A stretch of 64,000 nt of DNA from Thermoanaerobaculia bacterium. GTDB lineage: Bacteria; Acidobacteriota; Thermoanaerobaculia; Multivoradales; UBA5704. A program made the translations under genes and the position numbers. How positions within the stretch are numbered: position 1 is the stretch's first letter; the number at the start of each line of letters is the position of its first letter. The DNA is taken from contig JBGAGQ010000019.1 of assembly GCA_044226625.1 (NCBI GenBank), positions 31,678-95,677 on the forward strand, in the 5' to 3' direction. Below the pieces are notes generated by a model, which was not told the DNA's origin, searched no databases, and worked only from the letters and a program-made list of their open reading frames with translations. Positions 8,756 to 24,407 of this stretch are shown piece by piece.

Positions 8756-10603
8756 ATGTGTGGCATCGTCGGATATGTCGGGCACCGGGACGTGGTGCCC
8801 CTTTTGATGGACGGCCTGGGCCGGATGGAATACCGCGGTTACGACTCCGCGGGGATCGTCGCCGTCGCGGACGGGGCGTTCCAGACCGCGCGGGCGGAAG
8901 GCAAGCTCGAAAACCTTCGCAACAAATTGGCGGTGTCGCCGGTCACCGGTGTCTACGGCCTCGGCCATACCCGCTGGGCGACGCACGGACCGCCGAGCGA
9001 GCGCAACGCCCACCCGATGGTCGACTCCAAGGGGCGGGTGGCGCTGATCCACAACGGCATCATCGAGAACTTCCTGCCGCTCAAGAAGCGGCTGCTAGCG
9101 GAGGGCTGGACGTTCTCCTCCGACACCGACACCGAGGTGGTGGCGAACCTCATCTCCTCCTATCTCGACGGCAGCACCCTACGCGACGCGGTCGCGCGCG
9201 CGATCTCCGAGGTCGAGGGGATGTACGCCTTCGCCGCCGTCACCACGGAAGGGGAGGGCCAGGAGATCGTCGCCACGCGGATGGGGCCGCCGCTCGTCCT
9301 GGGCCTCGGAGGCGAAGGGCAGAACGAGCAGTTCCTCGCCTCGGATCCGGGGGCGCTGCTCGCCTATACCCGCAACGTGATCTTCCTCGAGAACGGCGAC
9401 CTCGCCGAGCTGACGCCGGGCAAGATCGACATCTACGATCGCTCCGGGCGGCTCCTCGCGCCCGCTGAACGGCCCGTGCAGCGGCTCAACTGGGACCCGG
9501 TCCAGGCGGAAAAGGGGGGCTACAAGCACTTCATGGCGAAGGAGATCCATGAGCAGCCCCAGGCGGTTCAGGACACCTTCGCCGGCCGGGTGGATTTCGA
9601 GACCGGCGAGATCCTGTTCGACACCGTATCGCTGCCGGCCGAGGAGATCCGCAAGATCGAGCGGCTCCACCTGCTCGCCTGCGGCACCTCGTGGCATTCG
9701 GCGCTGGTCGGCAAGTTCCTGATCGAGACCATCGCCCGGCTCCCCGTCGAGGTCGACTACGGCTCGGAGTATCGCTATCGCGATCCGATCGTCGACTCCC
9801 GGGTGCTCGCCGTCGGGATCTCGCAGTCGGGCGAGACGGCCGACACGCTGTCGGCCATGGAAGCCGCCAAAGAGCGGGGCGCGCGGCTCTTTTCGGTCTG
9901 CAACGTTGTCGGCTCGCAGGCGACCCGCATCAGCCAGGGGGTCATCTACACGCACGCGGGACCGGAGATCGGCGTCGCCTCGACCAAGGCGTTCACCACC
10001 CAGCTGGTCGCCCTCTACTTGCTCGCGCTCTATTTGAAACAGCAGCGCGAGGGGAGCATCGACCGGTTCTATCTGGAAGATCTCGCCCATCTGCCGTCGG
10101 CGGTCGACCAGGTCATCCGCCGCCAGGAGGCGCATCTCGAAGATCTCGCGCGCCGGTACCACAAGGCCTCGAACTTCCTCTACCTAGGGCGTGGCATCAA
10201 CTACCCGATCGCGCTCGAGGGGGCGCTCAAGCTCAAGGAGATCTCCTACATCCACGCCGAGGGGTACCCCGCGGGCGAGATGAAACATGGACCGATCGCC
10301 CTGATCGACGAGAACCTACCGGTCGTGGCGGTGGCGACCGGCGACGGCGTCTACGAGAAGGTCCGCTCGAACCTCCAGGAGGTCCGGGCGCGCGACGGTC
10401 ACCTCCTGGTCGTCACCGACGGCGCCGCGGAAGATTTCGAGTCGCTCGCCCACGAGATCATCGAAGTCCCTCGCGTCTCGCCGCTCCTCCAGCCGATCGT
10501 GAACGTCATCCCGCTCCAGCTACTCGCCTACTTCATCGGCGTGCGCCGCGGCGCCGACGTCGACCAGCCGCGGAACCTGGCGAAGAGCGTCACGGTGGAG
10601 TAG
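8756..10603 (+). CDS. glmS: Glutamine-fructose-6-phosphate aminotransferase
   Basis: MCGIVG, EYRGYDSAG, HTRWATHG, SQSGETADT, VASTKAFT, GEMKHGPIALID, DQPRNLAKSVTVE. Confidence 0.99.
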   Translation: MCGIVGYVGHRDVVPLLMDGLGRMEYRGYDSAGIVAVADGAFQTARAEGKLENLRNKLAVSPVTGVYGLGHTRWATHGPPSERNAHPMVDSKGRVALIHNGIIENFLPLKKRLLAEGWTFSSDTDTEVVANLISSYLDGSTLRDAVARAISEVEGMYAFAAVTTEGEGQEIVATRMGPPLVLGLGGEGQNEQFLASDPGALLAYTRNVIFLENGDLAELTPGKIDIYDRSGRLLAPAERPVQRLNWDPVQAEKGGYKHFMAKEIHEQPQAVQDTFAGRVDFETGEILFDTVSLPAEEIRKIERLHLLACGTSWHSALVGKFLIETIARLPVEVDYGSEYRYRDPIVDSRVLAVGISQSGETADTLSAMEAAKERGARLFSVCNVVGSQATRISQGVIYTHAGPEIGVASTKAFTTQLVALYLLALYLKQQREGSIDRFYLEDLAHLPSAVDQVIRRQEAHLEDLARRYHKASNFLYLGRGINYPIALEGALKLKEISYIHAEGYPAGEMKHGPIALIDENLPVVAVATGDGVYEKVRSNLQEVRARDGHLLVVTDGAAEDFESLAHEIIEVPRVSPLLQPIVNVIPLQLLAYFIGVRRGADVDQPRNLAKSVTVE

Positions 10604-10611
10604 ACGCGATC

Positions 10612-10648
10612 CGGAGGGCGGTCCGCCCCACGGTCCGCCCTCCGTTTC
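10612..10648 (+). terminator. Putative intrinsic terminator after glmS
   Basis: CGGAGGGCGG (10612-10621) pairs with CCGCCCTCCG (10635-10644), followed by TTT; 8 nt after the glmS stop. Confidence 0.55.
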
Positions 10649-10655
10649 GATTACA

Positions 10656-10886
10656 CGGTCGAGGAATTCGATTTTCCGGTCCACGAATTCGTTCATCCGG
10701 TCCGGAAATTCGATTTTCCGGTCCACGAATTCGAATTTCCCGCCCCCGAAATCGTTCTCGCGGCTCCCGAATTCGAATTTCTCATCCCCAAATTCGATTT
10801 TCCGGGCCGCAAATTCGTTCACGCGGCCCAGAAATTCGATTTTTCGGCTCGCGAATTCCATTTTTTCTCTCAGGAATTGGATTTCG
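10656..10886. repeat. Degenerate tandem repeat, 11 x 21 bp (consensus approx. CGGTCCNNRAATTCGATTTTC)
   Basis: Units start at 10656, 10677, 10698, 10719, 10740, 10761, 10782, 10803, 10824, 10845 and 10866, almost all with an AATT-containing core (unit 5 has AAATCG). No unique spacers. Confidence 0.9.
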
Positions 10887-10933
10887 GGAGATCTTTGGAC
10901 ATTTCCGGGAGGCTGCTCCTCAGCAACTCGCCC

Positions 10934-11314
10934 TTACGACGGAACCGCCTCGTCTTCAAAAGGAAGGTCGGCCAGAGCGGCGAGGATCTCGACTTCGAGC
11001 GCTGCCGTGATCTCCGTAGCAAGCTCTTCGCGTGCCGATGTCGGCGCGGTGGCGGCCGGCCTCGCGGCATCGGTGCAGATCCGGCCTAAGAGAGCGAGCA
11101 GCTGATCGACTCGCGCAGCGCCGACACCCACGCTCGCCGCCATTCGGTCCAGCGTAGGGCGGGATGGGGTGGAATCTCCCGTCTCGTACCGACCGATCGT
11201 CCGCCGATCGAGGCCGGTTAGTTTTCCGAACTGGTCGCGAGATCGGCGGGATTTAGCCCGCAGAACGACTGCCACGAGGCGTACCGCTTCCCGTTCGGTT
11301 GAATTTCCTCTCAT
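10934..11314 (-). CDS. XRE-family helix-turn-helix protein (126 aa)
   Basis: LRAKSRRSRDQFGKLTGLDRRTIGRYETGDSTPSRPTLDRMAASVGV is a typical XRE HTH; GGGGAG RBS before ATG 11314. Confidence 0.8.
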   Translation of the reverse strand: MRGNSTEREAVRLVAVVLRAKSRRSRDQFGKLTGLDRRTIGRYETGDSTPSRPTLDRMAASVGVGAARVDQLLALLGRICTDAARPAATAPTSAREELATEITAALEVEILAALADLPFEDEAVPS

Positions 11315-11356
11315 CAAAACGCTCCCCGACGCGCGTAGCATCCTGCGCCATGCCGC

Positions 11357-11370
11357 GTCGAAAATTCGAC
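11357..11370. promoter_or_regulatory. Candidate operator GTCGAAAATTCGAC (copy 1)
   Basis: Near-perfect 14-bp palindrome in the divergent gap between the small HTH gene and the peptide gene; related copies at 13320 and 13374. Confidence 0.5.
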
Positions 11371-11464
11371 ACCCTTGAAGCCTTCGGGCTCACAGTCAAT
11401 TTCGGAGGGGCACACACGGCCCTAACGGCCGTGTCGGCTGGCGCCCTCCTTAGAGGATCCTCAA

Positions 11465-11740
11465 ATGGCCACTCGACGTCGCGTTCTTCAGGTTCAGGTG
11501 TTGTGCACTTGTCTTCTCGCTATCGTCCTCGTTTTTCCCTCGCCCGCTGGAGCGCTTTCGTTGGGAACCGGAGGGGTACTCCATCGCCTGGCCATCTATT
11601 TGTCGTCTGCTTGGGGCACCAGCTTTCTCTCCGAACGGGATGTTCGGAGCGATGGACCTGCTCGTCCCGGAGCGTCCGCGCCGTTGATCTCCCGCGAGAA
11701 TGGCTGCATGGTCGATCCAATGGGTCTCTGTAGCAACTGA
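11465..11740 (+). CDS. Small secreted peptide precursor (91 aa) ending ENGCMVDPMGLCSN
   Basis: RBS AGAGGA; basic N-region (MATRRR), hydrophobic core and PAGA cleavage site; convergent with the HTH-TPR gene (13-nt gap). Confidence 0.6.
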   Translation: MATRRRVLQVQVLCTCLLAIVLVFPSPAGALSLGTGGVLHRLAIYLSSAWGTSFLSERDVRSDGPARPGASAPLISRENGCMVDPMGLCSN

Positions 11741-11753
11741 GCTCGCGGAGCGC

Positions 11754-13229
11754 TCATCGCGTCCCGACCGAGCGCTCCCCGCGTTGACCCGACCAGCGGT
11801 CCAGCTCTCGCAGGAGGCGGTGAGCTCCGTCTGCTGTCGCCTCCTCCTGCAAAACGGCTTGCCAGAAGAGACGGAGGCTGGCCAGGAGCTGGTTTGGGAT
11901 CTCCTGCGAGGCGAAAATGAAAGCCGTCGTCGACGCGAGGGCTTTGACCTCCTGAACCCGCCCTCGCTCCAGCTCGAGGGCAGCGAGCTCAAGCGCAGCG
12001 AGCGCCGCATCGAAGGGAATTCTCTCTCGAGCGAATGAATTTAAGACAGTGCTGATTCCCTCGGCTGCCCGGTCCCGATCACCCAAGCCGGCGGCCACTC
12101 GCGCTTCGAGCCACTGACAACGCAATTCGTCGAGAGCGTATCCCTGGTCGAAGGCGATCTCCCGCAGCTTTTCGAGGTGCTCCGCAGCTTCACCAAAACG
12201 GCCGGCGCGACAACAGTGATCGATTCTCTGAAACCAAAGACTACATCGCCAGCGAGGTTCAGCATTCGACTCAATCCACGGGGCCGCCAGTGACAGTGAG
12301 GCGAGCGCGTCTTCGTAACGATCGAGGCTTGCAAGCGTAATCGAGCGACTCAGCAATACTCGAGCTCGCCCCGCCTCCGTTGCCGAAGCGGCAAGCGCGC
12401 GATCTTGAAGCAGCAACGCTTCTTGAGGTTGGCCCTGATTGAATCGGAGAGTTGCTTTGCAAAGAAGGAAGAATCCCTCATCGAGAGGGAACGCCGGTAC
12501 AGCTGCTCCGGCGGACCAGAGTTCATCCGACTTTCGGATTGCGTCTTCAGCTCTTGGCAGGTCCCCACCCACGCGCAACGCATTGCCGACAAAGGCCCAC
12601 GCAAAGCCTTGAAGCCTAAACTTCCAGCATTGACTGCCCGACGTTTTCTCGGCGATCAACAGCGCCAACCGAGCCGTTTGAAGAGCTTTGCCGACACTGT
12701 GCCCTGAGAGGTTGACACTTGCTTCGCAGATCCGTTCGCAGAGCGCCCAGTTGTGAAATCTCGCGTCATCGACAGCCCGCCTGCGCCTAGCCACCTCTGG
12801 GAGGCCTCGAAGTTGAAGCCAAAGCTCATCCGCCAGGTTCCTCTCCCTTCGGAGGCGCTCGGTAACCAGTTTTGAACCTGCTTTGGCCCGAACTACAGCG
12901 GCCGAGTATTGGGCTGCTCGACCAGCGGCAGCTTCGACCGCCCGGCGCTCAGCGGGCAAAAGGCTCGCTGGAGAGACGACTTCGATCGCCTCACTCGCCG
13001 GTAGCTGCGCCTCAGCCACGAGGGCCCGATCCACTGCGCCGGAGTCGTGCCCCAAGAGACGCGCAAACCGATCAAGTTGCCTCCTGTCGAACGTTCGCTT
13101 TCCCTTCTCGTACAGCGAAACCGTTCCCCGACCGATGTGAGCCGCGGCTTCCAGCTTCCCCTGGGTCCAGCCCGCGGCCTGGCGTAAACGGCGCAGGCCG
13201 ATGGCGAAGATCGGTATCGGTTCTCGCAC
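11754..13229 (-). CDS. XRE-HTH + TPR-repeat transcriptional regulator (491 aa)
   Basis: N-terminal LRRLRQAAGWTQGKLEAAAHIGRGTVSLYEKGKR; C-terminal TPR-like helices (AWAFVGNALRVGGDLPRAEDA; LASLDRYEDALASL; RAGRFGEAAEHL); GTG start with GAGGAGAG RBS. Confidence 0.85.
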   Translation of the reverse strand: MREPIPIFAIGLRRLRQAAGWTQGKLEAAAHIGRGTVSLYEKGKRTFDRRQLDRFARLLGHDSGAVDRALVAEAQLPASEAIEVVSPASLLPAERRAVEAAAGRAAQYSAAVVRAKAGSKLVTERLRRERNLADELWLQLRGLPEVARRRRAVDDARFHNWALCERICEASVNLSGHSVGKALQTARLALLIAEKTSGSQCWKFRLQGFAWAFVGNALRVGGDLPRAEDAIRKSDELWSAGAAVPAFPLDEGFFLLCKATLRFNQGQPQEALLLQDRALAASATEAGRARVLLSRSITLASLDRYEDALASLSLAAPWIESNAEPRWRCSLWFQRIDHCCRAGRFGEAAEHLEKLREIAFDQGYALDELRCQWLEARVAAGLGDRDRAAEGISTVLNSFARERIPFDAALAALELAALELERGRVQEVKALASTTAFIFASQEIPNQLLASLRLFWQAVLQEEATADGAHRLLRELDRWSGQRGERSVGTR

Positions 13230-13319
13230 CCAGTGCTCTCCTCTGTTTGGGCGGTCTCTGGAATGTTACGTGTTTGAGCGTCAGTTGGTGTGACAGCCCG
13301 ACCCATAAGAGGTCCGATT

Positions 13320-13387
13320 GTCGAAATTTCGACGGTCGATCTGCCTACAAGGCATGTTCATACGAAGGTGACCGTCGAAAAAACGAC
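13320..13387. promoter_or_regulatory. Two candidate operators (GTCGAAATTTCGAC at 13320-13333; GTCGAAAAAACGAC at 13374-13387)
   Basis: A perfect palindrome plus an imperfect copy 54 bp apart, between the divergent HTH-TPR gene and the Rhs operon. TTTCGACGGTC (13327-13337) and GACCGTCGAAA (13370-13380) also form an 11-bp inverted repeat. Confidence 0.5.
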
Positions 13388-13634
13388 GCCGCGTCGAGCG
13401 TGACGTGATCTTTCAAGGATCTTGCGTTCGACCCGCTTACGTTGATTCTAAGGTTCTCGCATGGATTTTCGGCGCTCCCGCAGTACGGTTTCGCGATCCG
13501 AAGGTGTTGGCCGACCCGCCCGATCGCATTCCAGCCCGAAACGCCAGAGCCGCAAACAGGTGTTGGCCACTCCGCGATTCAAAGGAACCCAGCGGCTTGT
13601 GACGGTGTTATACGAAAGCAACCTGGAGAATCCG

Positions 13635-14354
13635 ATGCCCGAGAACCACCCAACCAAGGCCTCTCCGCTCACCCCCTGGGCGCTTGTTTCCCTCTCGATC
13701 CTCATCGCCTGCCCGGTTTTGGCGGCGCCGTCGATCACCCAGGTCCCGAAAGGCCTTTCCGCACAAGGGATCACCCCGGGAGGGAGAGCGATCTGGTGGA
13801 GCGTCGCCTACGAGCATCCGGATTCGTTCGTGACGGTCGTACAACGCCTCGAAGAGAAGGTGGACGACGACCTCGACGGCACCGTGGCTTTCGGCTACGA
13901 CGGAGAATTGCCGGACACGTCGCTCTGGCTCGTGGTCGACGTCGCGACGGGGACGTACGGCACGTTCGCTCCGGTCGATTTCGGCGTGACAGAAACGGCC
14001 CTCCCTCCCGAGGCGGCGCAGTCCACCGCGGGGCGCGGTCCAGTAGACGAGTTCCTCGAGGCGGCGCACCCGCTGATCGACGTGCTTCTGGTTCGCCCCG
14101 GCCAAGGCGCTTGGGAGTTACGGGCGGGCGATGGCGCAGATGCCGATCAGGACGGCGGCATCGAAGGGGAGATCCGGTTCGCGATCGACGGAATGTCCCC
14201 CGTCGGGGCGACGGCGGCGCCACCGGCTCGCTACGCCGACGGCGACCGGCTGCTGTCGATCGACCTCGAGCATCTGGAGCTGTCGAGCCTGTTGGTTTCC
14301 CTCGCCCCGCCCCCTCCGGGTGCGGCCGCGGCCCAGGCGGGGGTGCGGCGATGA
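13635..14354 (+). CDS. Secreted hypothetical protein translationally coupled to rhs
   Basis: RBS GGAGA, signal peptide MPENHPTKASPLTPWALVSLSILIACPVLAA; acidic DxDxDG-like motifs; ATGA overlap with the rhs start. Confidence 0.75.
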   Translation: MPENHPTKASPLTPWALVSLSILIACPVLAAPSITQVPKGLSAQGITPGGRAIWWSVAYEHPDSFVTVVQRLEEKVDDDLDGTVAFGYDGELPDTSLWLVVDVATGTYGTFAPVDFGVTETALPPEAAQSTAGRGPVDEFLEAAHPLIDVLLVRPGQGAWELRAGDGADADQDGGIEGEIRFAIDGMSPVGATAAPPARYADGDRLLSIDLEHLELSSLLVSLAPPPPGAAAAQAGVRR

Positions 14355-17300
14355 GAGCTCGCGCGATCCTCCTCGGTTCCCTGATCGCCGCTTCGGCCGC
14401 GAACGCCCAGCAGCACCCGAACGTCGCCAAGGGCTTCGCGCCGGACAAGATCTTCGCGGTGGGCGACGTCGACTCGGTAAACGCCTTCAACGGCAACCTT
14501 TTGCTGACCCTGGGAATCGGCGCCCGGTACCCCCTGCGGGAGGGTTTCTCCTACGGCCTCTCGGCGGTCTACAACTCGACCGTCTGGGATTTCCGCGATT
14601 TCAGCGCCGGCTCGACCTCGACCACTCAGGCGCGGATCAGCCGGCGGTCGAACGTTGGCGCCGGCTGGCGCCTGTCGCTCGGGCAGTTGTATTCGCCCTC
14701 TCGGGAGGATCTGCCGTTCAACGACACCCAAGCCTGGATCTACGTCGGCCCCGATGCGGCGGAGCACCGGTTCTTTCCCCGGCTGCACGACGAGGATCCG
14801 GAGGATCCGGGTGACGTCGGCGTCAAGGACACCCTGCAGAAGGTCCAGTACACCCGGGACGGCTCGTACCTGCGCCTTCGGCTGGACGGCCCGGGCGGCA
14901 CGAAGACGATCGAGTTCCCGGACGGCCAGATCCACACGTTCGATTCCAACCGTCGACTGATCGAGATCCGGGATCGCTTCGCGCCGGGGGGCGTCCCGGC
15001 GAATTTCCTCCATGTCGACTACACGGACACCACCTGGACCCTCACGGATCATCCTCAAGGCCGCGTGCAGGTGCTCACGTTCTCGAACCTGATGCAGGAC
15101 ATGCAGCCGATCCAACGGCTCGACAAGGTGGAAATGACCGCCTTTGCTCTCCCCGGTCAACAGCCGCCGCCGACGGCGACCTGGACGTTCGGCTATACCT
15201 CCGCGGTGATCCCGCGCGCCTGCCCGGACTGCAACAATCTGCAAACCGACGACCCGTTGACGCCGCCGACGCTCGCCGTTCAATTCCTCACCTCCATCAC
15301 CCAGCCGGACGGCTCGGTCTGGTCGATGCCGCTCTCGGATTACGTCCTCGCCAATCCGCCCGGCTTCAACGACCTCGTCGGGCGGATCAAGGGACTGACC
15401 CTGCCGACGCTCGGCCGGTTGGAGTGGGATTACGGCTTCTATATCTTCCCGAGCTCCGCGACCGAACGCCGCCCGTGGGCGCAATCGTCGCGCGGCGTCG
15501 TGGTGCGCCGAAAGAAGACCGCGTCGGGAGCGGTCGAAGGGACCTGGACCTACTCGCCTCACCTTCAATTCGAAGGGACTTCGACCGAGTCGCAATCGCA
15601 GGAGCTGACCGTCACGGTGACGACGCCGCTCGGCGACAAGACGGAGAACTTCTTCTCGGTCTACGCCTTCGGCAACAACCCGCCCGGCGTCTATCCGAAC
15701 ATCCTCGATTACGGCCGGCCCTTCACGCCGAAGGTCTCGGACGGCCAGGGGCGGTTTCTCTCGACGCGGGTCTACGACTGCCAGCCGAACGGCACGGGGT
15801 GCGTGCCCGTCCGTTCGACCTGGGTGCGCTACGAGCAGGACTATTCTCCTGGGGTCGGCAACGACGGCAGCGGCGAAGGGCAGCTGCTCGATCCTCGCGT
15901 AGCGCAAATGCGCACGGCGTTCGAGGACGACTGTCCGCCGGGCTCGACCACCTGCGGGATCACGACGCCGGTTCCGCCGCCGACCGGGAGCTACTACTCC
16001 GACGAGGATTTTTCGAGCTTCGACGGGCTCGGCCACTACCGGACGCGCCGTCTGGGCGGCAACTTCCCCGACGTGACGTCGATCACCGAAACGACGAGCT
16101 ACAACCCTTTGCGGGGGAATTACGGCTCGCCCGGCTATTCGATGCTCCCTTCGAGCTCGCCCTGGCTCCTCGGGCTATATCAGGACATGACGCGTTCGAA
16201 CAACTCCGGGGAAAACTCCACGGTCGAGAGCTGCTTCGACGGGACGACCGGCTTCCTCCAGAGGAAGAGGGTACGGAAGTTCGGTCGCACGGCGGACGAC
16301 GTGCTGGTCGTCTATTCGCCGAACGGCGACGGCACGGTGGCTCGGGAAGATTGGTCCGGGGGCGACGGCGGCAACGTGCCGCTTGCGGAGCTCTGCGGCC
16401 TGACGCCGCCGGGCGCCGGCTACTCGCTCAAGCATTCCTACCAGCTGGGCATCCTGTCCAAGTCCGAATACCTGAAGGCGAGTGGCGGCGTGTTCGAATT
16501 TGCGGCGGTCGATCGAACGGTCGATCCGCGAACGGGTTTGATCTCGGCGGAAAACGACGTCTCGAAGCTGCAGACGACCTACGAATACGACACGCTCGGC
16601 CGTCTCACCTGGGTGCAGCCGGCGACGGGGCATGGGGCCTGGACGGAATACGTCTACAACCGGGCACTCAACTCGGGCTCGCTCGCGAAGGTCACGATCA
16701 ACCAGCATGGGAACGGTGCCAAAGGCAACGCGATCCTGACGACGAGCAGCCTGTTCTTCGACTCCTTCGGGCGCCTGATCAAAGAGCAACGGAAGATGCC
16801 CGGAGGCACGTTCTCGAACCGGGAAACGACCTACGACGCGATCGGCAACCGGGCGACACTCTCGGAGTGGGAGGCGGGCGTTCCTTCGCACCGGACTCAG
16901 TACCAGGACTACGATCCGTTCGGCCGTCCGCGGACGATCCAGCCGTCCGACGGCTCGGCGCACCAGGTGACGATCACCCGCTCGGGCGTGCGGAAGGTGA
17001 CCACGGGGACGAAGATCTGGGGGCCGTGCGGTTCGGGCGGCGCGCTCCAGGAGTGCACGAGCGAGACGATCCAGCTCTTCGACCAAATCGGCCGCTTGTT
17101 CCGGATCGACCAGCCGGTCGTCTGGCCGACGACCGCGAACCCAAACCCGGCGCCGCTTCGGACCAGCTACGCCTACGACGTCGGCGACCGGTTGAAGACG
17201 GTCAAGCAGTTCGATGCGGTGACCCAGGCGATCGTCCAGCAGAGAGATTTCACATACGACAACCGAGGCTTCCTCACTTCGGAGACGCATCCGGAGCTGG

Positions 17301-19444
17301 GAGGTGTCACCGGCAACGGCTCCGTGACCTATTCGAACTACGACGCCAAGGGGCACGCGCGCCAGAAGTTCGACGGGGTGTCGACTCTCACGTTCGAATA
17401 CGACAAAGCCGAGCGCCTGACCCGAGTGCGGGAACCTGGGACCTTCATCGGCTGCGGCACCAACGCCCATCCCCGTTGTTTGAAGGAGTACACTTTCGGC
17501 ACGGTCAATTCCGGCAACGACCTAAAACTCGGAAAAGTCCAGGTGGCGACGCGTTACAACTACCCCGTCCTCGGCACGACCGCCCACACGGTGGCGGTGG
17601 CGGAAACCTACGCCTATGCCGGTAAAGAAGGCCGCGCGTCGAAGCGGGACACCCAGGTCTATTTCAACGGCGCCGCCACGGAATCGTTCACCCAAGGATT
17701 CGTCTATGACGACCTGGGCAATCCATCCAGTTTGAGCTATCCCCTCTGCACCCACATGGGGTGCGCGCCGCCCCCGCCGCAAGTTCCGACACCGAAGATC
17801 GTGAGCTTTTCGTACTCCGAGGGCTTGCTGACCGGCGTGCCGGGCTACGCGAGCTCGATCACCTACAACTCGAACCAGACCATCGCCCAGGTGATCCACG
17901 TCAACAACGTGACCGACGTGATCGGTCTCGATCCGAACGCCCAGCAGCGTCCAGGCTCGATCCTGTCGAAGGTGACGACGACCTCGGCGAACCTGTGGAA
18001 CGCCGGGAACTATCTTTACGACGGAGCGGGCAACGTGAAGTCGATCGGCGGCTCGGGCTTCGCCTACGATCCGGCGAGCCGGCTGGTGACCGCGAACCTC
18101 TGGGACGGCACGGGCGCGACGGGCACGCCGCTCAAGACGCAGACCTACGGCTACGACCTGTTCGGAAACCTATTGGCGATCGGCGGCCAGGGCGGGCGGA
18201 ACACCCCGACGAACTCGACGACCAACCGGCTGAACGGCGCCGGGATGGCCTACGACGCGGCGGGGAACCTGACCGCCAACAACGGCGCCGTGCACGAATA
18301 CGACCCGTTCCACTTGATGTGGCACTTCCAGTCAGGGGCCGAAGACTGGCGTTACGTCTACACGGCGGACGACGAGCGGATCTGGTCGTTCAAGACGGGC
18401 GGTGTCTCCCGCTGGACGCTACGCGACCTGGGGAACCAGGTGCTGCGGGAGTACAAGAACGACGGCGGCACCTGGAGCGTGACGGAAGATTTCATCCATC
18501 GGGGCACGCAGCTCCTCGCGGCCGACACGACGACCGGGGTGAGCCACTTCCACCTGGATCATCTGGGAACGCCCCGGCTGATCACGGATCAGACGGGGAA
18601 GAAGATCGCGTACCACGTGTACTGGCCGTACGGGGAGGAGCTGACTTCCACGAGCCAGGATGTGGAGCGGATGAAGTTTACCGGCCACGAGCGGGATTTG
18701 AACGGGGCGGGCGGGGCGGGGGATGATTTGGACTACATGCATGCTCGGTTTTGCTCGCCCGTGGTGGGGCGGTTTTTGGGGGTGGATCCTCTTGGAGCAA
18801 ATCTAAGCAACGCCCAAAGCTGGAATCGCTTCGCCTATGTTAGGGGAAACCCACTACGGTTCATCGATCCTACTGGCGAGGTCCTGGCAATTGCCGGTAC
18901 GGACTCCGATAAACGGAAGGCCGAAAGCATTGCGAATAGCGGATTGTATGGGCAGGAGCTGAAGATTTCCTCCTCAGGTAAGTCCTCTCTCTCGAGCTCG
19001 GGTGAAGTGGGCCCACCAACCAAGGAGCAAGCGGCCCTCTCCGGATTACTCTCAAAGGTCATCGATGACAAAAAATCGACGAGCATCAGCGCAACTTCCA
19101 ATGATCCACAGGTGGTAGTGGGCAGTTTCAAGGCGAGCAGGATTGACGTATCCGACATGGCCGCTTTTGGCAATGGTCCTGGTGCATCGCAGGCCGGAGC
19201 GTTCGCCCATGAAGTTGCTGAACAATATGAGAAGCAAGTTCATGGCTCCGACTTCCCTGCTGGACATATGAGCGCGATGAAAACTGAATCAGACGTCACG
19301 GGCTTCACGCGAGGCCAGGAAAGACCGAGCAGGACACCTCAAGGGGATGTTAAGGTCTCGGTGCAGTATTCGAACGCATCAACTCAGGTAACCGTCGACG
19401 TGGTTCTAGACCAAAATGGAAGACTCAGTGTCTCGAGGCATTGA
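14351..19444 (+). CDS. Rhs/YD-repeat polymorphic toxin (~1697 aa) with Sec signal peptide and a zincin-like C-terminal domain
   Basis: Start MRARAILLGSLIAASAANAQQ; YD repeats (YEYDTLGRLT, YAYDVGDRLK, FEYDKAERLT, YGYDLFGNL); RHS core (HLDHLGTPRLITD, YWPYGE, KFTGHERD, DYMHARF, WNRFAYVRGNPLRFIDPTG); lower-GC C-terminal tip with AFAHEVAE. Confidence 0.93.
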   Translation: MRARAILLGSLIAASAANAQQHPNVAKGFAPDKIFAVGDVDSVNAFNGNLLLTLGIGARYPLREGFSYGLSAVYNSTVWDFRDFSAGSTSTTQARISRRSNVGAGWRLSLGQLYSPSREDLPFNDTQAWIYVGPDAAEHRFFPRLHDEDPEDPGDVGVKDTLQKVQYTRDGSYLRLRLDGPGGTKTIEFPDGQIHTFDSNRRLIEIRDRFAPGGVPANFLHVDYTDTTWTLTDHPQGRVQVLTFSNLMQDMQPIQRLDKVEMTAFALPGQQPPPTATWTFGYTSAVIPRACPDCNNLQTDDPLTPPTLAVQFLTSITQPDGSVWSMPLSDYVLANPPGFNDLVGRIKGLTLPTLGRLEWDYGFYIFPSSATERRPWAQSSRGVVVRRKKTASGAVEGTWTYSPHLQFEGTSTESQSQELTVTVTTPLGDKTENFFSVYAFGNNPPGVYPNILDYGRPFTPKVSDGQGRFLSTRVYDCQPNGTGCVPVRSTWVRYEQDYSPGVGNDGSGEGQLLDPRVAQMRTAFEDDCPPGSTTCGITTPVPPPTGSYYSDEDFSSFDGLGHYRTRRLGGNFPDVTSITETTSYNPLRGNYGSPGYSMLPSSSPWLLGLYQDMTRSNNSGENSTVESCFDGTTGFLQRKRVRKFGRTADDVLVVYSPNGDGTVAREDWSGGDGGNVPLAELCGLTPPGAGYSLKHSYQLGILSKSEYLKASGGVFEFAAVDRTVDPRTGLISAENDVSKLQTTYEYDTLGRLTWVQPATGHGAWTEYVYNRALNSGSLAKVTINQHGNGAKGNAILTTSSLFFDSFGRLIKEQRKMPGGTFSNRETTYDAIGNRATLSEWEAGVPSHRTQYQDYDPFGRPRTIQPSDGSAHQVTITRSGVRKVTTGTKIWGPCGSGGALQECTSETIQLFDQIGRLFRIDQPVVWPTTANPNPAPLRTSYAYDVGDRLKTVKQFDAVTQAIVQQRDFTYDNRGFLTSETHPELGGVTGNGSVTYSNYDAKGHARQKFDGVSTLTFEYDKAERLTRVREPGTFIGCGTNAHPRCLKEYTFGTVNSGNDLKLGKVQVATRYNYPVLGTTAHTVAVAETYAYAGKEGRASKRDTQVYFNGAATESFTQGFVYDDLGNPSSLSYPLCTHMGCAPPPPQVPTPKIVSFSYSEGLLTGVPGYASSITYNSNQTIAQVIHVNNVTDVIGLDPNAQQRPGSILSKVTTTSANLWNAGNYLYDGAGNVKSIGGSGFAYDPASRLVTANLWDGTGATGTPLKTQTYGYDLFGNLLAIGGQGGRNTPTNSTTNRLNGAGMAYDAAGNLTANNGAVHEYDPFHLMWHFQSGAEDWRYVYTADDERIWSFKTGGVSRWTLRDLGNQVLREYKNDGGTWSVTEDFIHRGTQLLAADTTTGVSHFHLDHLGTPRLITDQTGKKIAYHVYWPYGEELTSTSQDVERMKFTGHERDLNGAGGAGDDLDYMHARFCSPVVGRFLGVDPLGANLSNAQSWNRFAYVRGNPLRFIDPTGEVLAIAGTDSDKRKAESIANSGLYGQELKISSSGKSSLSSSGEVGPPTKEQAALSGLLSKVIDDKKSTSISATSNDPQVVVGSFKASRIDVSDMAAFGNGPGASQAGAFAHEVAEQYEKQVHGSDFPAGHMSAMKTESDVTGFTRGQERPSRTPQGDVKVSVQYSNASTQVTVDVVLDQNGRLSVSRH
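18539..18788 (+). repeat. Rhs-core direct repeat; copy A of a 250-bp segment nearly identical to 20055-20304 (diverged copies near 21411-21660 and 23217-23445)
   Basis: By-eye alignment shows only one mismatch (CTGGGAACG vs CTGGGGACG) between 18539-18788 and 20055-20304. Confidence 0.9.
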
Positions 19445-19830
19445 TGAGAACTTACGGATTGCTGTTCCTTCTGCTCACGACAGGGTGTGCCCGTTCCATC
19501 AGATGCAATCAGTGTCAGCCAGCCTTGGCGGATATCGTCTGGGGGTTCCATGAAGCGAGGATGGAGGCATCGCTTCGTTCTTGGGAACGGGGCGAGGAAA
19601 TTGATGGACCGATGTTCATGGAAGACGTGGAGTTTTTCGAAGGCGTGACAGGCCTCGAGCTGACAAATAAGAACTATTTTGGTGTATTGCCTTCGAGCGA
19701 CGATAAGAAGTTCTTCGCCAAATGGAGGTCTTGGTACAAGTCACACAAAGCGAGTCTCGAAATAGCATGCACTGCAGGGGGCAAGGTTTCCTTAAAAATT
19801 ATCCAAAGCCGAGCGCCCGGCACGCCTTGA
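19444..19830 (+). CDS. Putative cognate immunity lipoprotein
   Basis: TGATG overlap with the rhs stop; lipobox LLTTGC; lower GC; position typical of Rhs immunity genes. Confidence 0.7.
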   Translation: MRTYGLLFLLLTTGCARSIRCNQCQPALADIVWGFHEARMEASLRSWERGEEIDGPMFMEDVEFFEGVTGLELTNKNYFGVLPSSDDKKFFAKWRSWYKSHKASLEIACTAGGKVSLKIIQSRAPGTP

Positions 19831-19955
19831 GGGCGAGGGGACTACGTTTAGTTCCTCCCGCAACGATGGCTCTCTCGTCTCGCCTAACGGTCGCGTTTGG
19901 GGGCGATTCGTGACATTCTCCTTCTCCACATGTTCGAGCCGGCCAGGGTCGCCAG

Positions 19956-20909
19956 GTGCTGCGGGAGTACAAGAACGACGGTGGCAAGTGGAGCATGACA
20001 GTGGATTTCATCCACCGGGGTAGCCAGCTCCTCGCGGCGGACACCTCGGCCGGAGTGAGCCACTTCCACCTGGATCATCTGGGGACGCCCCGGCTGATCA
20101 CGGATCAGACGGGGAAGAAGATCGCGTACCACGTGTACTGGCCGTACGGGGAGGAGCTGACTTCCACGAGCCAGGATGTGGAGCGGATGAAGTTTACCGG
20201 CCACGAGCGGGATTTGAACGGGGCGGGCGGGGCGGGGGATGATTTGGACTACATGCATGCTCGGTTTTGCTCGCCCGTGGTGGGGCGGTTTTTGGGGGTG
20301 GATCGTGTAGGTGGGACCCTAGGGATTCCTCAGAGCTGGAATCGGTACTCCTACTCGTATGGCAATCCGATCAAGCTAGTCGATCGGGATGGGAATCACC
20401 CGGTTGTGATCCTCTTGATTGTAGCCGGTGTCGCACTGTTTTCAGAGCCTGAGGCCGCCAACGCGCCAGGTTCAAAGGCTGAGCACGATGCGGGGATTCC
20501 GGACAAGAGCAACATGGGCGACCTGTCGGCCGCAGCGAAAGCCGCGGCGGTTTACGTTAGCTTGGTAAATCTGTTTAGCGGAGATGAGAGCCGATCTAAT
20601 GAGCCGGAGGACGTTGAAAAACCTGCCACGGTTCAGGACAACAAGAAGAATGGCGACGAATATCGCGACCAAGTAGCAAAGGAGATTGAGGCACTGGGGA
20701 ATTCGACAAAGACCGAAGTGACAAAGAAGACGCCGTTCGGACAGCGCAAGGTCGACATAGAGGTGACCAAGGAGGGTAAGGTTGTGGGAGGCGTTGAGAC
20801 GAAAACCGGTGACTCTCGATACTTGCCATCTCAGCAGGCCAAAGATGAATACCTGAAATCAACGGGCTATGACGTGGTCGTTGTTCGGAAGCCACCTCCT
20901 GGAGAGTAA
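19956..20909 (+). CDS. Orphan Rhs module 1: core fragment + PD-(D/E)xK nuclease-like toxin tip
   Basis: Rhs core duplicate up to GNPIKLVDRDG; tip contains NKKNGDEYRDQV...RKVDIEV...VETKTG...QQAKDEYL. No clear RBS/start, so probably a silent cassette. Confidence 0.8.
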   Translation: MLREYKNDGGKWSMTVDFIHRGSQLLAADTSAGVSHFHLDHLGTPRLITDQTGKKIAYHVYWPYGEELTSTSQDVERMKFTGHERDLNGAGGAGDDLDYMHARFCSPVVGRFLGVDRVGGTLGIPQSWNRYSYSYGNPIKLVDRDGNHPVVILLIVAGVALFSEPEAANAPGSKAEHDAGIPDKSNMGDLSAAAKAAAVYVSLVNLFSGDESRSNEPEDVEKPATVQDNKKNGDEYRDQVAKEIEALGNSTKTEVTKKTPFGQRKVDIEVTKEGKVVGGVETKTGDSRYLPSQQAKDEYLKSTGYDVVVVRKPPPGE

Positions 20910-21212
20910 ATGATAAATATGGGAGATCTTCTGGGTAAATGGGTTTCCGATCCTGCAGACAAGGTGGCGCGTGCAGAGTATGGCGACACCTCGCTTGAGT
21001 TCCGTGCGAACGGCGATCTCATCTACACCATCTATGGCGCCACGAAAGACGAGATTGCGATTCTGAGCTATAGAATCTGCGGTGATGAGATAGTCACCAG
21101 CCAGTTGTCCTACCCTAGGGAGGAGGTCAGCAAATTGGCAATCGATGATCAGGGTGCCATGACGATTGAATTCGGCAATGTCACCTCGCATTATGTGCGT
21201 GCCAAGGAGTAG
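20910..21212 (+). CDS. Putative immunity protein for orphan module 1 (small beta-rich, LLGKW start motif)
   Basis: ATG immediately after the toxin TAA; acidic 100-aa protein with no signal peptide. Confidence 0.65.
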   Translation: MINMGDLLGKWVSDPADKVARAEYGDTSLEFRANGDLIYTIYGATKDEIAILSYRICGDEIVTSQLSYPREEVSKLAIDDQGAMTIEFGNVTSHYVRAKE

Positions 21213-21240
21213 TTGCACGCATGTGAGTTGAGATTCCCCG

Positions 21241-22367
21241 GATGACGAACAGATCTGGTCGTTCAAGACGGGCGGACTGTCCCGCTGGACGTTACGCGAC
21301 CTGGGCAACCAGGTGCTGCGGGAGTACAAGAACGACGGCGGCACCTGGAGCGTGACGGAGGACTTCATCCATCGGGGCGCGCAGCTTCTGGCCGCCGACA
21401 CCACGACCGGTGTGAGCCATTTCCACCTGGACCATTTGGGGACGCCGCGCCTGATCACCGACCAGACGGGCAAGAAGATCGCGTACCACGTGTACTGGCC
21501 GTACGGGGAGGAGCTGACTTCCACGAGCCAGGATGTGGAGCGTAGGAAATTTACCGGGCACGAGCGCGACTTCAACGGCGCGGGCGGGCCGGGGGATGAC
21601 CTGGACTACATGCATGCGCGGTTTCGCTCGCCGGTGGTGGGGCGGTTTTTGGGGGTGGATGAGGTTGAGGGCAGAGCAGATAGGCCCTAATCTTGGAACC
21701 GCTATGCCTATCGCATGGAAATCCGCTGAAAAGTATCGACCCGCACGGCAAGGATGAAATTTCAGCTCTGGCGAATGTCTATGCATCGGTCTCCCGCGCG
21801 ATCGTCGGCGTAGGCTCGGCAATACAAGACGTCGTCGATTCATTAAACGAAGGTGGTGTCGTGGGCATTGCCGCCGACACAGCCCTTGGGACGGCGGGGT
21901 CAGCGGTGCAAGGAATCGGTGACCTGTTCAACCTTGGTAGGTCAAGTGGCGACGCGATAGGCTCCGATGGGGACTCGTACGATGTCGGAAATGCGCTTGC
22001 TGCGGATCTTGGGCGGGCAAGCGGAATCGTGCTCACGATCGCAGGCACGGCTCAGTACAGCCTCGGAGCTAAGGCACCCCTGTACCGTGCCGTGTCGCAG
22101 GCAGAAATGTCTAGCCTTGCAGAGTCTGGGTCCTTCCAGCCCTCGCCGTCGGGGAGTATGTCGAAAGGTTTCTTCTTCTCGAAGGGTGATGCGGAAGCTT
22201 TTGCATCTCAAAAGTCGCGTATCGACGGGCCCCACTCCGTCGTTTCTGCTGAAGCTCCGACGCAGCTGGTAAGATCTTCTCCTCCCCATGTGGCTGGAGA
22301 AGGGCCCGGCGTCTATATACCGAACAATCGACTAAGCAGTGTAACGCCGAAGGTAACCCCGAGATGA
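21241..22367 (+). pseudogene. Orphan Rhs module 2 (disrupted): core fragment + ADP-ribosyltransferase-like toxin tip
   Basis: Core homology from 21241; TAA at 21688-21690 in place of Q in PQSWNRY and a frameshift near 21711 before GNPLKSIDPHG. The tip has LYRAVSQAE...GSF...KGFF...DAEAF. Confidence 0.75.
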
Positions 22368-22831
22368 ATCCCTTAGAGCTCATCATCTTCGACACCGATC
22401 CACATCTCGTAGAGACGTTTCGGCGAGGAATCGACCTTCCTTTCGTAAAGATTGTTCTAGGAAGCGGGCCGGAAGTCACCTCTTTCCAAAAGCTCGATGC
22501 GCTGTGGGGCAGCTGGATGATTGCCGAGCGTTTTGGAATTACACCGGACCCCGTACCCTATCGTGCAGAGGTCTTCCCGAACGCCGGTCCTTTAAGGGGC
22601 CTTCCTCCATTCATAGTCGCCGGTCCTAGTCTCGCACCGGGAGATAGTTTTTCGCCAAACAGAGGCCTTGAAATCAACCTGGACGGAATGCTGGATGCTG
22701 TTTCGCGATTTAACGCGAGCAGTGAGACTCCGATCCGGCGTTTGGGGACGATTCGTGAGAATCTCCTTCTCCACATGATCGAGCCGGACAGGGTCGCCGC
22801 TGCGATCGATGCAGCCTGGCGGAGACATTAG
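22364..22831 (+). CDS. Macrodomain-like putative immunity protein
   Basis: ATGA overlap with the toxin tip; pattern LELIIFDTDPHLVETF...VKIVLG...DAL...PPFIVAGPSL...LDAVSRFN...IRRLG follows the macro-fold strand/helix order. Confidence 0.6.
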   Translation: MNPLELIIFDTDPHLVETFRRGIDLPFVKIVLGSGPEVTSFQKLDALWGSWMIAERFGITPDPVPYRAEVFPNAGPLRGLPPFIVAGPSLAPGDSFSPNRGLEINLDGMLDAVSRFNASSETPIRRLGTIRENLLLHMIEPDRVAAAIDAAWRRH

Positions 22832-22851
22832 CGATGCTATGAGAGTTCCCC

Positions 22852-23445
22852 AAACCTGTTGGAGATAGGCGGACTGGGTGGGCGGAATACGCCACCGAAT
22901 TCGGCTACGAACCGCCCCGGGGATGGCCTACGACGCGGCGGGGAACCTGACGGCCAACAACGGCGCGGTGCACGAGTACGACTCGTTCCAACTGATGTGG
23001 CACTTCCAGTCGGGGGCAGAAGACTGGCGCTAGGTCTACACAGCTGACGATGAGCGGATCTGGTCGTTCAAGACGGGCGGTGTCTCCCGCTGGACGTTAC
23101 GCGACCTGGGCAACCAGATGCTGCGGTAGGCCAAGAACGACGGTGGTATCTGGAGTGTGACGGAGGACTTCATCCATCGGGGTAACCAGCTCCTCGCGGC
23201 GGACACCACGACTGGGGTGAGCCACTTCCACCTGGATCATGTGGGAACGCCGCGGCTCATCACGGATCAGACGGGTAAGAAGATCGCGTACCAAGTGTAC
23301 TGGCCGTACGGCGAGGACCTAACTTCATCAAGCCAGGATTTGGAGCGAATGAAGTCACCGGCCACGAGCGGGACTTGAACGGTGCGGGTGGGCCAGGGGA
23401 CGATCTGGACTACATGCATGCTCGGTTCTGCTCGCCGGTGGTGGG
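22852..23445 (+). pseudogene. Decayed Rhs core fragment without toxin tip
   Basis: Homologous to 18166-18769; TAG stops at 23031 and 23127, plus small indels; ends before the WNRY/DPxG junction. Confidence 0.85.
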
Positions 23446-23568
23446 AAGGTCACAATTTCGGCAAATCCTTCCCTTACCAAGGGTCTTCCGTACACAATTG
23501 GTGTTGCCGCCGTGAATAGGGAGCTAGTATCTGAATGTTGTGCCCTGGACTCGCACGAAGGAATAGGA

Positions 23569-23934
23569 ATGATCGAAAGGAAGCACCTGACCATCGGCCT
23601 CGAGTTTTATCGAGGCAACTCATCTCCAGTCGAAGGCTACTTCGAAGAGGGCGTTCCAAATCCCCGGCACCTCGATGAGCTAGGGGTCTCTGTGGATGCG
23701 GAGGAGGTATTCGACGAGGTAGCTGACTCGTTCAAACAATCCGGCCGCCTACAGGTCACTTTCAGCGGCACCCGAAGGGCATATGCAGAGCTAGGACGCT
23801 ATTTCCTGGCAATGTCGGAGTTCCAAGCGCTCAACCCCCAATACCACGACCACCTTGACCGGCTAGCTAAGGTTGAAGGAAAGAGGGAGGTCGAGCTCAT
23901 CGTGCGGCTACCGGGACCGCAGCGAGTAGAATGA
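23569..23934 (+). CDS. Orphan immunity protein (Imm32-like pattern)
   Basis: RBS AGGAATAGGA; LQVTFSGTRRAYAELGRYFLAMSE...YHDHLD resembles the G...L..LA..L..la...HxHLD pattern of Imm32-type proteins (from memory). Confidence 0.55.
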   Translation: MIERKHLTIGLEFYRGNSSPVEGYFEEGVPNPRHLDELGVSVDAEEVFDEVADSFKQSGRLQVTFSGTRRAYAELGRYFLAMSEFQALNPQYHDHLDRLAKVEGKREVELIVRLPGPQRVE

Positions 23935-24407
23935 GGTCCACTCCCCTCCTTGGAGTTGGGATTGGCGTTTTGCTGGTCCTGGCCTCTTGTGCGAGCGACG
24001 GTGGGCGAGCCAGAGAACCAAGCATCATCGAAGCATTGCGAACTTCCGCCCAGCCAGCCATTGACACTTTCACGGAGGACTTTCTGGCCGGAAAGTTGAA
24101 GCTAGAACCTCGGTGGCTGGCCGATCGGTCCATCCAACACGTTTACATTCGGATTGGTGGTTCGCGCGAAGAGGGAATCAACCACCTCGGCGTCGAGCGG
24201 CTCGGCGACTATTTCCTTTGCCTGTTGGAGATTCGTTTCAACAAGTCGACCGCGGAGATTCTGAACGACCGGAGGCTCCCCGTAGCGGATGCCTGCGCGC
24301 AAGGAGGTTGTGGACCCTGCTATTCGGAAGCATGGCCGATGAGTGACGATGCGCGTAAGGCCCTGGTTGCCTTTTGGCTCGAACGAGCGAGCGATTGGGC
24401 TAGGTAG
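23931..24407 (+). CDS. Lipoprotein, possible orphan immunity protein
   Basis: ATGA overlap with the previous gene; lipobox VLASC; Cys-rich C-terminus (CAQGGCGPC). Confidence 0.6.
   Translation: MRSTPLLGVGIGVLLVLASCASDGGRAREPSIIEALRTSAQPAIDTFTEDFLAGKLKLEPRWLADRSIQHVYIRIGGSREEGINHLGVERLGDYFLCLLEIRFNKSTAEILNDRRLPVADACAQGGCGPCYSEAWPMSDDARKALVAFWLERASDWAR

Follow-up and report, generated by a model that had tools for sequence, protein, structure and literature searches.

The window analysed here is a stretch of 64,000 nucleotides from contig JBGAGQ010000019.1 of a Thermoanaerobaculia genome assembly (GCA_044226625.1, phylum Acidobacteriota). An earlier note, made from the letters of this DNA, had singled out positions 10934-13229 as a candidate peptide-signalling module of the RRNPP type, in which a 491-residue protein with an XRE-type helix-turn-helix (HTH) and tetratricopeptide repeats (TPRs) converges on a 91-residue open reading frame (ORF) with a signal peptide. 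Both genes were recovered with all of these elements in place. The same range also includes a gene for a 135-residue XRE-HTH protein, which that note did not describe. As seen from the ORF list and the sequence, the three genes fill the space between glmS (8756-10603, + strand) and an Rhs operon. The short XRE-HTH regulator and the 91-residue ORF, hereafter called the precursor, are divergent, with 123 bp between their starts. The stop codons of the precursor and of the 491-residue regulator lie 13 bp apart, so these two genes converge. The order of the cassette is therefore short regulator (leftward), precursor (rightward) and XRE-HTH + TPR regulator (leftward), and its features are collected in Table 1.

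The 491-residue regulator contains an HTH_31 domain at residues 9-62 (E 7.8e-11; 42.6 bits versus a Pfam cut-off of 27), and the TPR_2 and TPR_12 models scored under their Pfam cut-offs in the same protein. In the AlphaFold2 (AF2) model, which has a predicted local distance difference test score (pLDDT) of 89.2, the HTH at residues 7-58 is followed by a long linker helix (92-141) and a TPR-type superhelix (145-483). Neither a signal peptide nor a membrane segment was seen in this regulator. The 135-residue regulator resembles its HTH, with 33% identity over 69 residues (E 5e-5). When the 491-residue model was compared with known structures using VIA-align, high scores were obtained for LGN (Z 22.5), for RapJ with bound peptide (4gyo; Z 21.6, root-mean-square deviation 3.9, 292 residues aligned), for the Rap protein of phage phi3T (Z 21.2), for RapF (Z 20.6) and for NprR (Z 19.6 for 5dbk, and 19.0). 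The ranking given by Foldseek was similar. PlcR, PrgX, Rgg, ComR and AimR were absent among the 50 structural matches listed. Since Rap and NprR are tied with LGN, the comparison establishes the fold class of the regulator and not membership of the RRNPP family.

Table 1. Features of the cassette and of the adjoining Rhs locus, in window coordinates.
Feature	Position	Strand	Basis
Short XRE-type HTH regulator, 135 aa, sensor domain absent	10934..11341	-	Pfam HTH_31, E 1.2e-8
Candidate operator 1, palindrome GTCGAAAATTCGAC	11357..11370	.	16 bp upstream of short regulator ATG, 108 nt upstream of precursor ATG
GC-rich inverted repeat ACGGCCCTAACGGCCGT, at -49 from precursor start	11416..11432	+	family position
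Shine-Dalgarno-like AGAGGA, 7 nt ahead of precursor ATG	11452..11457	+	sequence
Precursor of putative exported peptide, 91 aa	11465..11740	+	independent family HMM, E 2.9e-7
Predicted signal peptide, residues 1-30	11465-11554	+	inspection and alignment
Core motif G-C-M-V-D-P-M-G-L-C, residues 80-89, two residues from C-terminus	11702..11731	+	family consensus
Hairpin directly after precursor stop, within 3' end of convergent regulator gene	11744..11781	+	inverted repeat, RNA fold
XRE-HTH + TPR regulator, 491 aa	11754..13229	-	Pfam HTH_31; AF2 pLDDT 89.2
TPR superhelix of 491-aa regulator, residues 145-483	11781-12797	-	AF2 model
HTH of 491-aa regulator, residues 7-58	13056-13211	-	AF2 model, Pfam
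Candidate operator 2, perfect palindrome GTCGAAATTTCGAC	13320..13333	.	91 bp upstream of 491-aa regulator's GTG
Imperfect copy GTCGAAAAAACGAC of operator 2 palindrome	13374-13387	.	sequence
240-aa exported protein, no Pfam family	13632-14354		island ORF
Rhs protein, 1688 aa	14378-19444		RHS_repeat, E 5.4e-16
317-aa ORF with RHS core motif	19956-20909		island ORF
Two further copies of Rhs segment 1289-1487, 88-91% identical	21241-21711, 22920-23354		sequence

The small ORF and its family

The predicted product of the 91-residue ORF opens with MATRRR and a hydrophobic core that runs to a PAGA/L boundary. These are followed by a pro-region helix ending at W50, a linker rich in Pro, Gly and Ser, and a C-terminal tail, ENGCMVDPMGLCSN, that carries a single loop. 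The signal peptide was judged by eye and by alignment to 14 relatives with the same n/h/c layout. Because the genome is 67% GC open frames are cheap, and the window has 766 stop-to-stop frames of at least 40 aa. GC content by codon position is flat in this ORF (0.62/0.57/0.59), and that at third positions (GC3) is 0.63-0.66 in the neighbouring regulators; within the low-GC island that holds the locus GC3 proved uninformative as a coding test and was set aside. For 10900-13300 no RNA run was listed, the one run listed being of DNA and perhaps from the source sample. A search of its own genome with the single sequence returned no paralogue (next best E 0.3), and the precursor family surfaced only by tblastn around regulator homologues and with profiles. 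With tblastn of the ORF against the 1.5-kb flanks of regulator homologues, similar ORFs were found in the same place. An independent hidden Markov model (HMM) was built from 150 family representatives taken from the database, with the ORF of the window excluded. Only one of the 766 frames was matched by this model, namely the 91-residue ORF, at 25.9 bits. By this comparative evidence, which is what decides the matter, the ORF is a real gene and a diverged single-loop member of the family.

Precursors of this family share a signal-peptide-like N-terminus, a conserved helix ending in Trp, one to four loops and a stop near the last Cys. The loop consensus, drawn from 210 instances, is [DKE]-[NEA]-G-C-x-[ILM]-D-P-x-G-x-C, with Gly preceding the first Cys in 206 of them. 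One loop is present in 18 of the 91 relatives, two in 35, three in 30 and four in 8; the last Cys lies at most 5 aa from the C-terminal end in 72 of the 91. The median length in the family is 105 aa, with some members longer than 100. Both Cys are absent and G-x-x-x-D-P-x-G is kept in 15 of 113 profile-positive frames; the invariant core is G-x-x-x-D-P-x-G and not the Cys pair. The GxxxDPxG tail element named in the earlier note is the conserved core of the neighbouring small ORFs generally. The disulfide loop that it had envisaged is plausible, as the Cys pair brackets the motif in most members, and is not required, as the frames that lack both Cys indicate. Its remark that the likeness of DPxG to the Rhs autoproteolysis motif might be coincidental can be put more firmly: because the motif is family-wide and independent of Rhs, coincidence is the best reading. 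Two DsbA-like genes were found in the genome of the window, one of them within a 426-aa open frame.

Cys-less precursors were seen at L060:1351-1749 (G000:C125) and at loci L052, L058, L061 and L063. One example reads ...GAAIDPHG...GAAIDPHG up to the stop codon, and that at L052 has three ...IDP[NT]G.. units. Precursor genes also occur in tandem, with five MRVLR... genes in L121 (13.3 kb) and three profile matches within 1.3 kb at G454:C158:6603-7882.

A model of a three-loop precursor consists of the signal helix, one more helix and tiny hairpins (pLDDT 67, predicted template modelling score 0.28), and no compact domain is predicted. The three variable positions of the loop agree at 0.43 within a precursor versus 0.20 between precursors, a value that none of 2000 shuffles reached. 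As the loop repeats arise by duplication, similarity within a precursor cannot count as separate evidence of function. Across 25 pairs of close precursors, conservation was lowest at the variable positions (0.57) and higher in the leader (0.76) and the scaffold (0.90), so that the variable positions change fastest. No dibasic pattern flanking the loops was found in the precursors. The family has no Pfam or NCBIfam model, and its Pfam echoes, to conotoxin (E 0.037) and defensin (E 0.48), are weak and non-significant. The relatives of the precursor in the protein atlas are only unnamed Acidobacteriota clusters. A profile of 15 precursors matched 1,872 protein clusters at E <= 1e-3 and 749 at E <= 1e-10 among 1.84 billion representatives, the clusters being typically 100-135 aa long.

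These comparisons also bear on the thought that, the family being real, the copy in the window is a decaying remnant that no longer functions, which we consider very improbable. This copy has one loop left, where 73 of the 91 relatives have two or more; in alignment with the relatives an unrelated linker takes the first-loop position after W50; its GC3 is 0.59 versus 0.73-0.86 in the four other precursors of the genome; and its score with the independent HMM is weak. Against decay, the frame is open, and the signal-peptide layout, the Shine-Dalgarno site, the full terminal motif and both position-fixed upstream elements are intact. Single-loop precursors make up 18 of the 91 family members, both flanking regulators are intact, and the longer one folds confidently in AF2. 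Low GC3 is common to the whole island and may thus reflect origin rather than decay. The hairpin that follows the stop codon has arms (11744-11755 and 11770-11781) that are 92% complementary, with an RNA fold of -24.2 kcal/mol (z -2.4), and is a possible terminator without a U-tract.

Conserved linkage of precursor and regulators

The neighbourhood of the cassette was surveyed in 78 further homologous loci with 6-kb flanks (869 kb). A convergent precursor was found within 700 bp of 49 of the 59 testable full-length regulators, at a median gap of 88.5 bp. Among the best 19 regulator homologues in relatives, 17 adjoin a motif ORF, and such an ORF stands beside all four XRE-HTH-TPR paralogues of the window's own genome. 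In the reverse direction, a convergent regulator was present at 27 of 34 peptide-centred loci. Of the seven exceptions, two are rows for a single locus that a contig end truncates and one is an overlap artefact; in the other four, a precursor of weak score adjoins a TPR protein encoded on its own strand. The earlier note had proposed examining whether small signal-peptide-like ORFs with a GxxxDPxG tail consistently adjoin homologues of the regulator, and in both directions they do. The third gene is likewise usual: a divergent XRE-HTH gene lies within 450 bp upstream of 76 out of the 104 distinct precursors, the two starts being separated by a median of 159 bp. Among the 69 whose length could be measured, 20 are shorter than 200 aa, as is the 135-residue protein here, 35 are 200-399 aa and 14 are of full length.

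Across the surveyed loci, the recurring items were the regulator (78), the precursor (59 loci at >= 90 aa) and antisense shadows of the regulator, and the next commonest gene cluster was present in 14 of the 78. No conserved enzyme, transporter, immunity or protease gene, and no conserved phage gene, was found in these flanks. No conserved modifying enzyme of the type that acts on ribosomally synthesized and post-translationally modified peptides was found beside the precursor, only regulator and precursor recurring in more than 14 of the 78 loci. Of the features of class II bacteriocins, neither a conserved immunity gene nor a dedicated ABC exporter was found in the same loci, and the leader of the precursor is by inspection of the Sec type, where class II bacteriocins have a double-glycine leader.

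About 20 paralogues per genome share the TPR domain and begin with an HxxxCxxC segment where the HTH would be (G000 loci L011-L018 and L060). The segment is of the anti-sigma zinc-finger type, with zf-HC2 over its Pfam cut-off in one of five tested paralogues, and one of these paralogues comes after a Cys-less precursor, both genes being on one strand. That one TPR domain is found behind two kinds of N-terminus is in keeping with a ligand sensor that feeds more than one output.

Occurrence in Acidobacteriota

The relatives that carry the cassette are labelled as Thermoanaerobaculia, Thermoanaerobaculaceae or Acidobacteriota metagenome-assembled genomes, and a few as Holophagales. In the Thermoanaerobaculia family to which the window belongs (f1), 90 of 92 genomes have a precursor match at E <= 1e-5, with up to 38 matches per genome and more than 1,100 in total. 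At the same threshold, 48 of 201 genomes of the same order have a match, namely 32 of 33 in f1, 8 of 8 in f4, 4 of 10 in f11 and 3 of 8 in f3, and in the eight other sampled families no genome has one. In an even sample of the phylum, 6 of 401 genomes match at E <= 0.001. Only three of these, all of f1, match strongly; the other three matches are marginal (E > 4e-4), with no motif and no regulator in the vicinity. The cassette is a lineage-specific, three-gene unit of Thermoanaerobaculia, and as a family it is real, large and undescribed. A literature search (supplements lay outside its scope) returned no paper on the precursor family and none linking RRNPP or RRNPPA with Acidobacteria or Acidobacteriota. 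The papers that did come up treat sponge symbiosis or are community or survey studies and, to judge from their listings, have no bearing on the cassette. The outer membrane that the earlier note had ascribed to the host is supported by six Omp85 matches in the genome and three of secretin, one of which lies in the window (35283-35759).

Promoter regions and possible transcriptional control

The 14-bp palindrome GTCGAA-N2-TTCGAC is rare, with four copies in the 6.6-Mb genome, two of which are in the two promoter regions of the module; its chance expectation in the window is 0.39. The copy named operator 2 sits in the intergenic region common to the 491-residue regulator and the divergent p240-Rhs operon, p240 being the 240-residue exported protein. 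Across the family, an inverted repeat centred at -130..-90 was found in 24 of 86 precursor upstream regions (shuffle mean 8.2, maximum 12). The position of these repeats is fixed and their sequence differs from module to module, and the palindromes near -110 are read as candidate operators specific to each paralogue. In a relaxed test, 4 of 17 modules had a near copy of the -110 palindrome ahead of their own long regulator, versus 14 of 646 mismatched pairs. In a strict test, perfect half-sites with 6-nt arms were common to both promoter regions in only 2 of 38 modules versus 1.4% of controls.

The GC-rich inverted repeat nearer the start has counterparts in the family as well, an xGGCC-N3-7-GGCCx element beginning at -52..-44 in 34 of 86 precursor upstream regions, with arms that change on both sides between modules. 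The RNA fold of 11405-11467 is -27.6 kcal/mol (z -2.8). The G-U strand asymmetry that would tell an RNA hairpin from a DNA site is 28 versus 31, and the repeat may be either a hairpin of the 5' untranslated region or a DNA site. A Shine-Dalgarno-like motif is found at -16..-5 in 76 of the 86 precursor genes. A CTCC...GGAG pairing overlaps the Shine-Dalgarno site in 27 of the 86.

Conserved linkage and promoter palindromes common to regulator and precursor would also fit plain transcriptional control, and this is the basis of the main rival explanation, a regulated secreted effector, which is rather unlikely in our judgement. The TPR regulators would then sense some other cue and switch on exported loop peptides as an output and not a ligand. 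The peptides could be antimicrobial or competition peptides, protease-inhibitor-like loops, or binders of metal or calcium, at work in the periplasm or beyond the cell. Toxins and inhibitors, too, can combine a fixed, Cys-bracketed scaffold with hypervariable positions, the copy in the window shares its low-GC island with Rhs competition genes, and the faint Pfam echoes of conotoxin and defensin lean in this direction. Several observations argue against an effector, however. Beside the cassette there is no conserved gene for immunity, export or maturation, and keeping as many as 38 copies in one genome, each paired with a sensor regulator, would be unusually costly. The Cys-less members, in which only G-x-x-x-D-P-x-G is kept, speak against a toxin or inhibitor fold that depends on disulfides, and the predicted TPR fold is of the peptide-binding type.

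A proposed peptide-signalling circuit

The operational signature of RRNPP systems consists of a propeptide of small size, its export by Sec, a receptor of 250-500 aa that contains TPRs, and genes that directly adjoin (PMC10075063). The module in the window fits these five features, Sec export only as a probable one judged by inspection. The precursor, at 91 aa, is within the 10-100 aa given for propeptides, and its putative Sec signal is suggested by the n/h/c layout and the PAGA/L boundary, as judged by inspection and alignment. The regulator, at 491 aa, is within the size range of receptors, and its TPRs are represented by the AF2 superhelix (145-483), whose top structural matches are all TPR proteins (Z 17-22.5). 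The gap of 13 bp, like the family median of 88.5 bp, falls within the -60 to 400 bp allowed for adjacency (PMC10075063). The RRNPP detector was applied to Firmicutes and viruses, the trait being framed as one of Gram-positive bacteria and phages, and repeat duplication within propeptides is also reported for Phr (PMC10075063).

The best-supported reading of the cassette is an RRNPP-like peptide-signalling circuit, to which we give about an even chance of being correct. The precursor would be exported by Sec and its signal peptide removed. The pro-region would then be cut off, releasing a short G-x-x-x-D-P-x-G peptide that is usually Cys-bracketed and here would contain ..GCMVDPMGLC... This peptide would build up outside the cell, re-enter, and bind in the concave TPR groove of the neighbouring cytoplasmic regulator. 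The 491-residue regulator and the sensor-less short paralogue, as a competitor, would bind the 14-bp palindrome at both promoters of the module; in this way the circuit would control both itself and the signal that drives it, as is the case for RRNPP systems of Bacillota. Through the three variable positions of the loop, every pair of paralogues would have a 'word' of its own. The steps that we infer here are export, processing, re-import, binding and the influence on DNA binding. In favour of this reading are the conserved linkage, the lack of any conserved accessory gene, the fit to the RRNPP signature, the alignment of the TPR domain with peptide-bound Rap and NprR receptors over about 290 residues, the C-terminal place of the motif with its fast-changing variable positions and no compact precursor fold, the rare palindrome at both promoter regions, the TPR domain's second kind of N-terminus and, as regards import, one Opp-type binding protein in the genome. 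More broadly, it is proposed, tentatively and with somewhat more doubt than belief, that soil Thermoanaerobaculia run up to some dozens of parallel private channels per genome, each with a Sec-exported G-(C)-x-[ILM]-D-P-x-G-x-(C) peptide and its own cytoplasmic TPR sensor wired to an XRE or an anti-sigma-like zinc-finger head.

A number of points weigh against a signalling circuit. The role of the peptide as ligand of the regulator is itself something that we infer, and a prediction of the complex between the TPR domain (residues 125-484) and the last 30 residues of the precursor gave a score of 0.20 (mark 0.32), which speaks neither for it nor against it. The predicted fold is matched non-specifically, the eukaryotic LGN reaching Z 22.5 versus 21.6 for Rap, and sequence searches with the regulator yield HTH and TPR matches of a generic kind only, RapH scoring E 2.3e-3. 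If the regulators did no more than control the peptide gene, linkage would be expected just as much. The similarity of repeats within precursors and the linkage of paralogues could both stem from duplication history alone. The two-operator arrangement is present in only 4 of 17 modules. For the copy in the window, GC is flat over the codon positions and there is no close orthologue, the closest regulator elsewhere being 45% identical to the 491-residue one. The RRNPP peptides known so far are linear, carry no modifications and do not consist of Cys-bracketed repeats. In a diderm, moreover, the signal has to cross the outer membrane on its way out and two membranes on its way back. Just one gene for an Opp-type binding protein (SBP_bac_5, Opp/Dpp-type; E 1.6e-90) was found in the genome, and no uptake gene is linked to the cassette in the 78 loci.

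The question of how far the peptide travels leads to a further alternative, in which it stays in the periplasm or is directly taken up again and reports on the state of export, envelope or redox, with no role between cells. Sec export in a diderm delivers to the periplasm, and both Omp85 and secretin are present in this host; no outer-membrane exporter is linked to the cassette; and a Cys pair could render the ligand redox-sensitive. In the 97.9%-complete genome no member of the DsbB or VKOR families was found, which agrees with such a self-directed signal and counts against a circuit between cells. Many paralogous variants with distinct variable positions are nevertheless hard to explain for a general state sensor, and variants without Cys exist. 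We regard this alternative as improbable.

Should the proposal of many private channels per genome prove correct, they would be the first peptide quorum sensing with a cytoplasmic receptor in an outer-membrane bacterium and the largest known expansion of such systems. With a cassette of RRNPP-like logic, the range of HTH-TPR peptide communication would be widened to a diderm phylum that is dominant in soils and barely cultured, and the question would be raised of how a peptide crosses the outer membrane twice. The matches in f1 and the 1,872 protein clusters would amount to a large natural library of orthogonal triplets of peptide, sensor and operator. The hypothesis is open to direct test with synthetic peptides and purified proteins, for which culture of the host is not needed.

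The Rhs locus and the low-GC island

Directly after glmS, at about 10,600-24,000, the window has a low-GC island with GC of 0.58-0.63 versus 0.677 for the genome. GC3 of the module lies at 0.59-0.63, that of other modules of the genome at 0.73-0.86. The island may have been acquired from elsewhere; a scan of its ORFs brought no integrase or transposase to light. With its Rhs gene, the ORF with an RHS core motif and the repeated Rhs segments (Table 1), it looks like an Rhs locus with orphan tip cassettes. The 240-residue protein recurs directly upstream of two other Rhs genes of the same genome, at 34-36% identity (G000:C124:6585-7184 and G000:C58:251490-251996), and is therefore a conserved partner of these Rhs genes.

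The Rhs gene is divergent from the 491-residue regulator, as the earlier note had it. The control of Rhs by the module that was also suggested there does not hold as a general rule, as the 78 loci contain no Rhs homologue, and Rhs was rejected as a conserved target of the cassette. For this copy alone, candidate operator 2 lies in the shared intergenic region, and the module of the window may exert local control of Rhs.

Between glmS and the short regulator, at 10646-10864, there are about nine copies of a 21-bp unit, TTCGATTTTCCGGTCCACGAA. In the C69 module, too, the short regulator has a 21-bp array downstream, of a different kind (L048:445-726). As a feature of the cassette these arrays were considered and rejected; they are genome-wide, Tandem Repeats Finder giving 105 rows with period 21 and 41 with period 42, from several sequence families, and are thus a feature of the genome rather than of the cassette.

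Comparison with known systems

The closest known systems are the RRNPP/RRNPPA systems of Bacillota. In layout the nearest are NprR-NprX and PlcR-PapR, with HTH + TPR receptors, and in fold the nearest is Rap-Phr. The cassette is like them in having a receptor of 250-500 aa with an N-terminal XRE-type HTH, a TPR superhelix and no secretion signal seen, and an adjoining small gene for a propeptide, in the cassette of putative Sec type, whose C-terminal end holds a conserved element. Both lack dedicated export or maturation genes, many paralogous pairs occur per genome, and a palindromic box is found at the receptor's own promoter and at that of the peptide. The cassette differs in its host, a diderm acidobacterium, and in its convergent genes. 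Its peptide unit, G-(C)-x-[ILM]-D-P-x-G-x-(C) in one to four repeats, is not a short unstructured oligopeptide, and a third gene, for a sensor-less or truncated HTH paralogue, is usually part of it. Its sequence matches are to generic HTH and TPR proteins, with no membership at the level of sequence.

The arbitrium system of Bacillus phages (AimR-AimP) likewise has an HTH + TPR receptor encoded beside a small Sec-exported propeptide, with the mature peptide at the C-terminus, and resides on mobile or accessory DNA. It differs in peptide type, gene order and host phylum, and no conserved phage genes surround the cassette. Precursors of the yeast alpha-factor type contain several tandem, near-identical copies of a peptide with spacers, as do the precursors described here; they are eukaryotic, have dibasic processing sites and act on a membrane receptor. 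The cyclic autoinducing peptides of Agr systems are short, ring-closed signals in which hypervariable positions define specificity groups. Agr depends on thiolactone formation by AgrB and on a membrane histidine kinase, neither of which is linked to the cassette, and where the ring of Agr is a thiolactone, that of the cassette peptide would be a disulfide, dispensable in some members.

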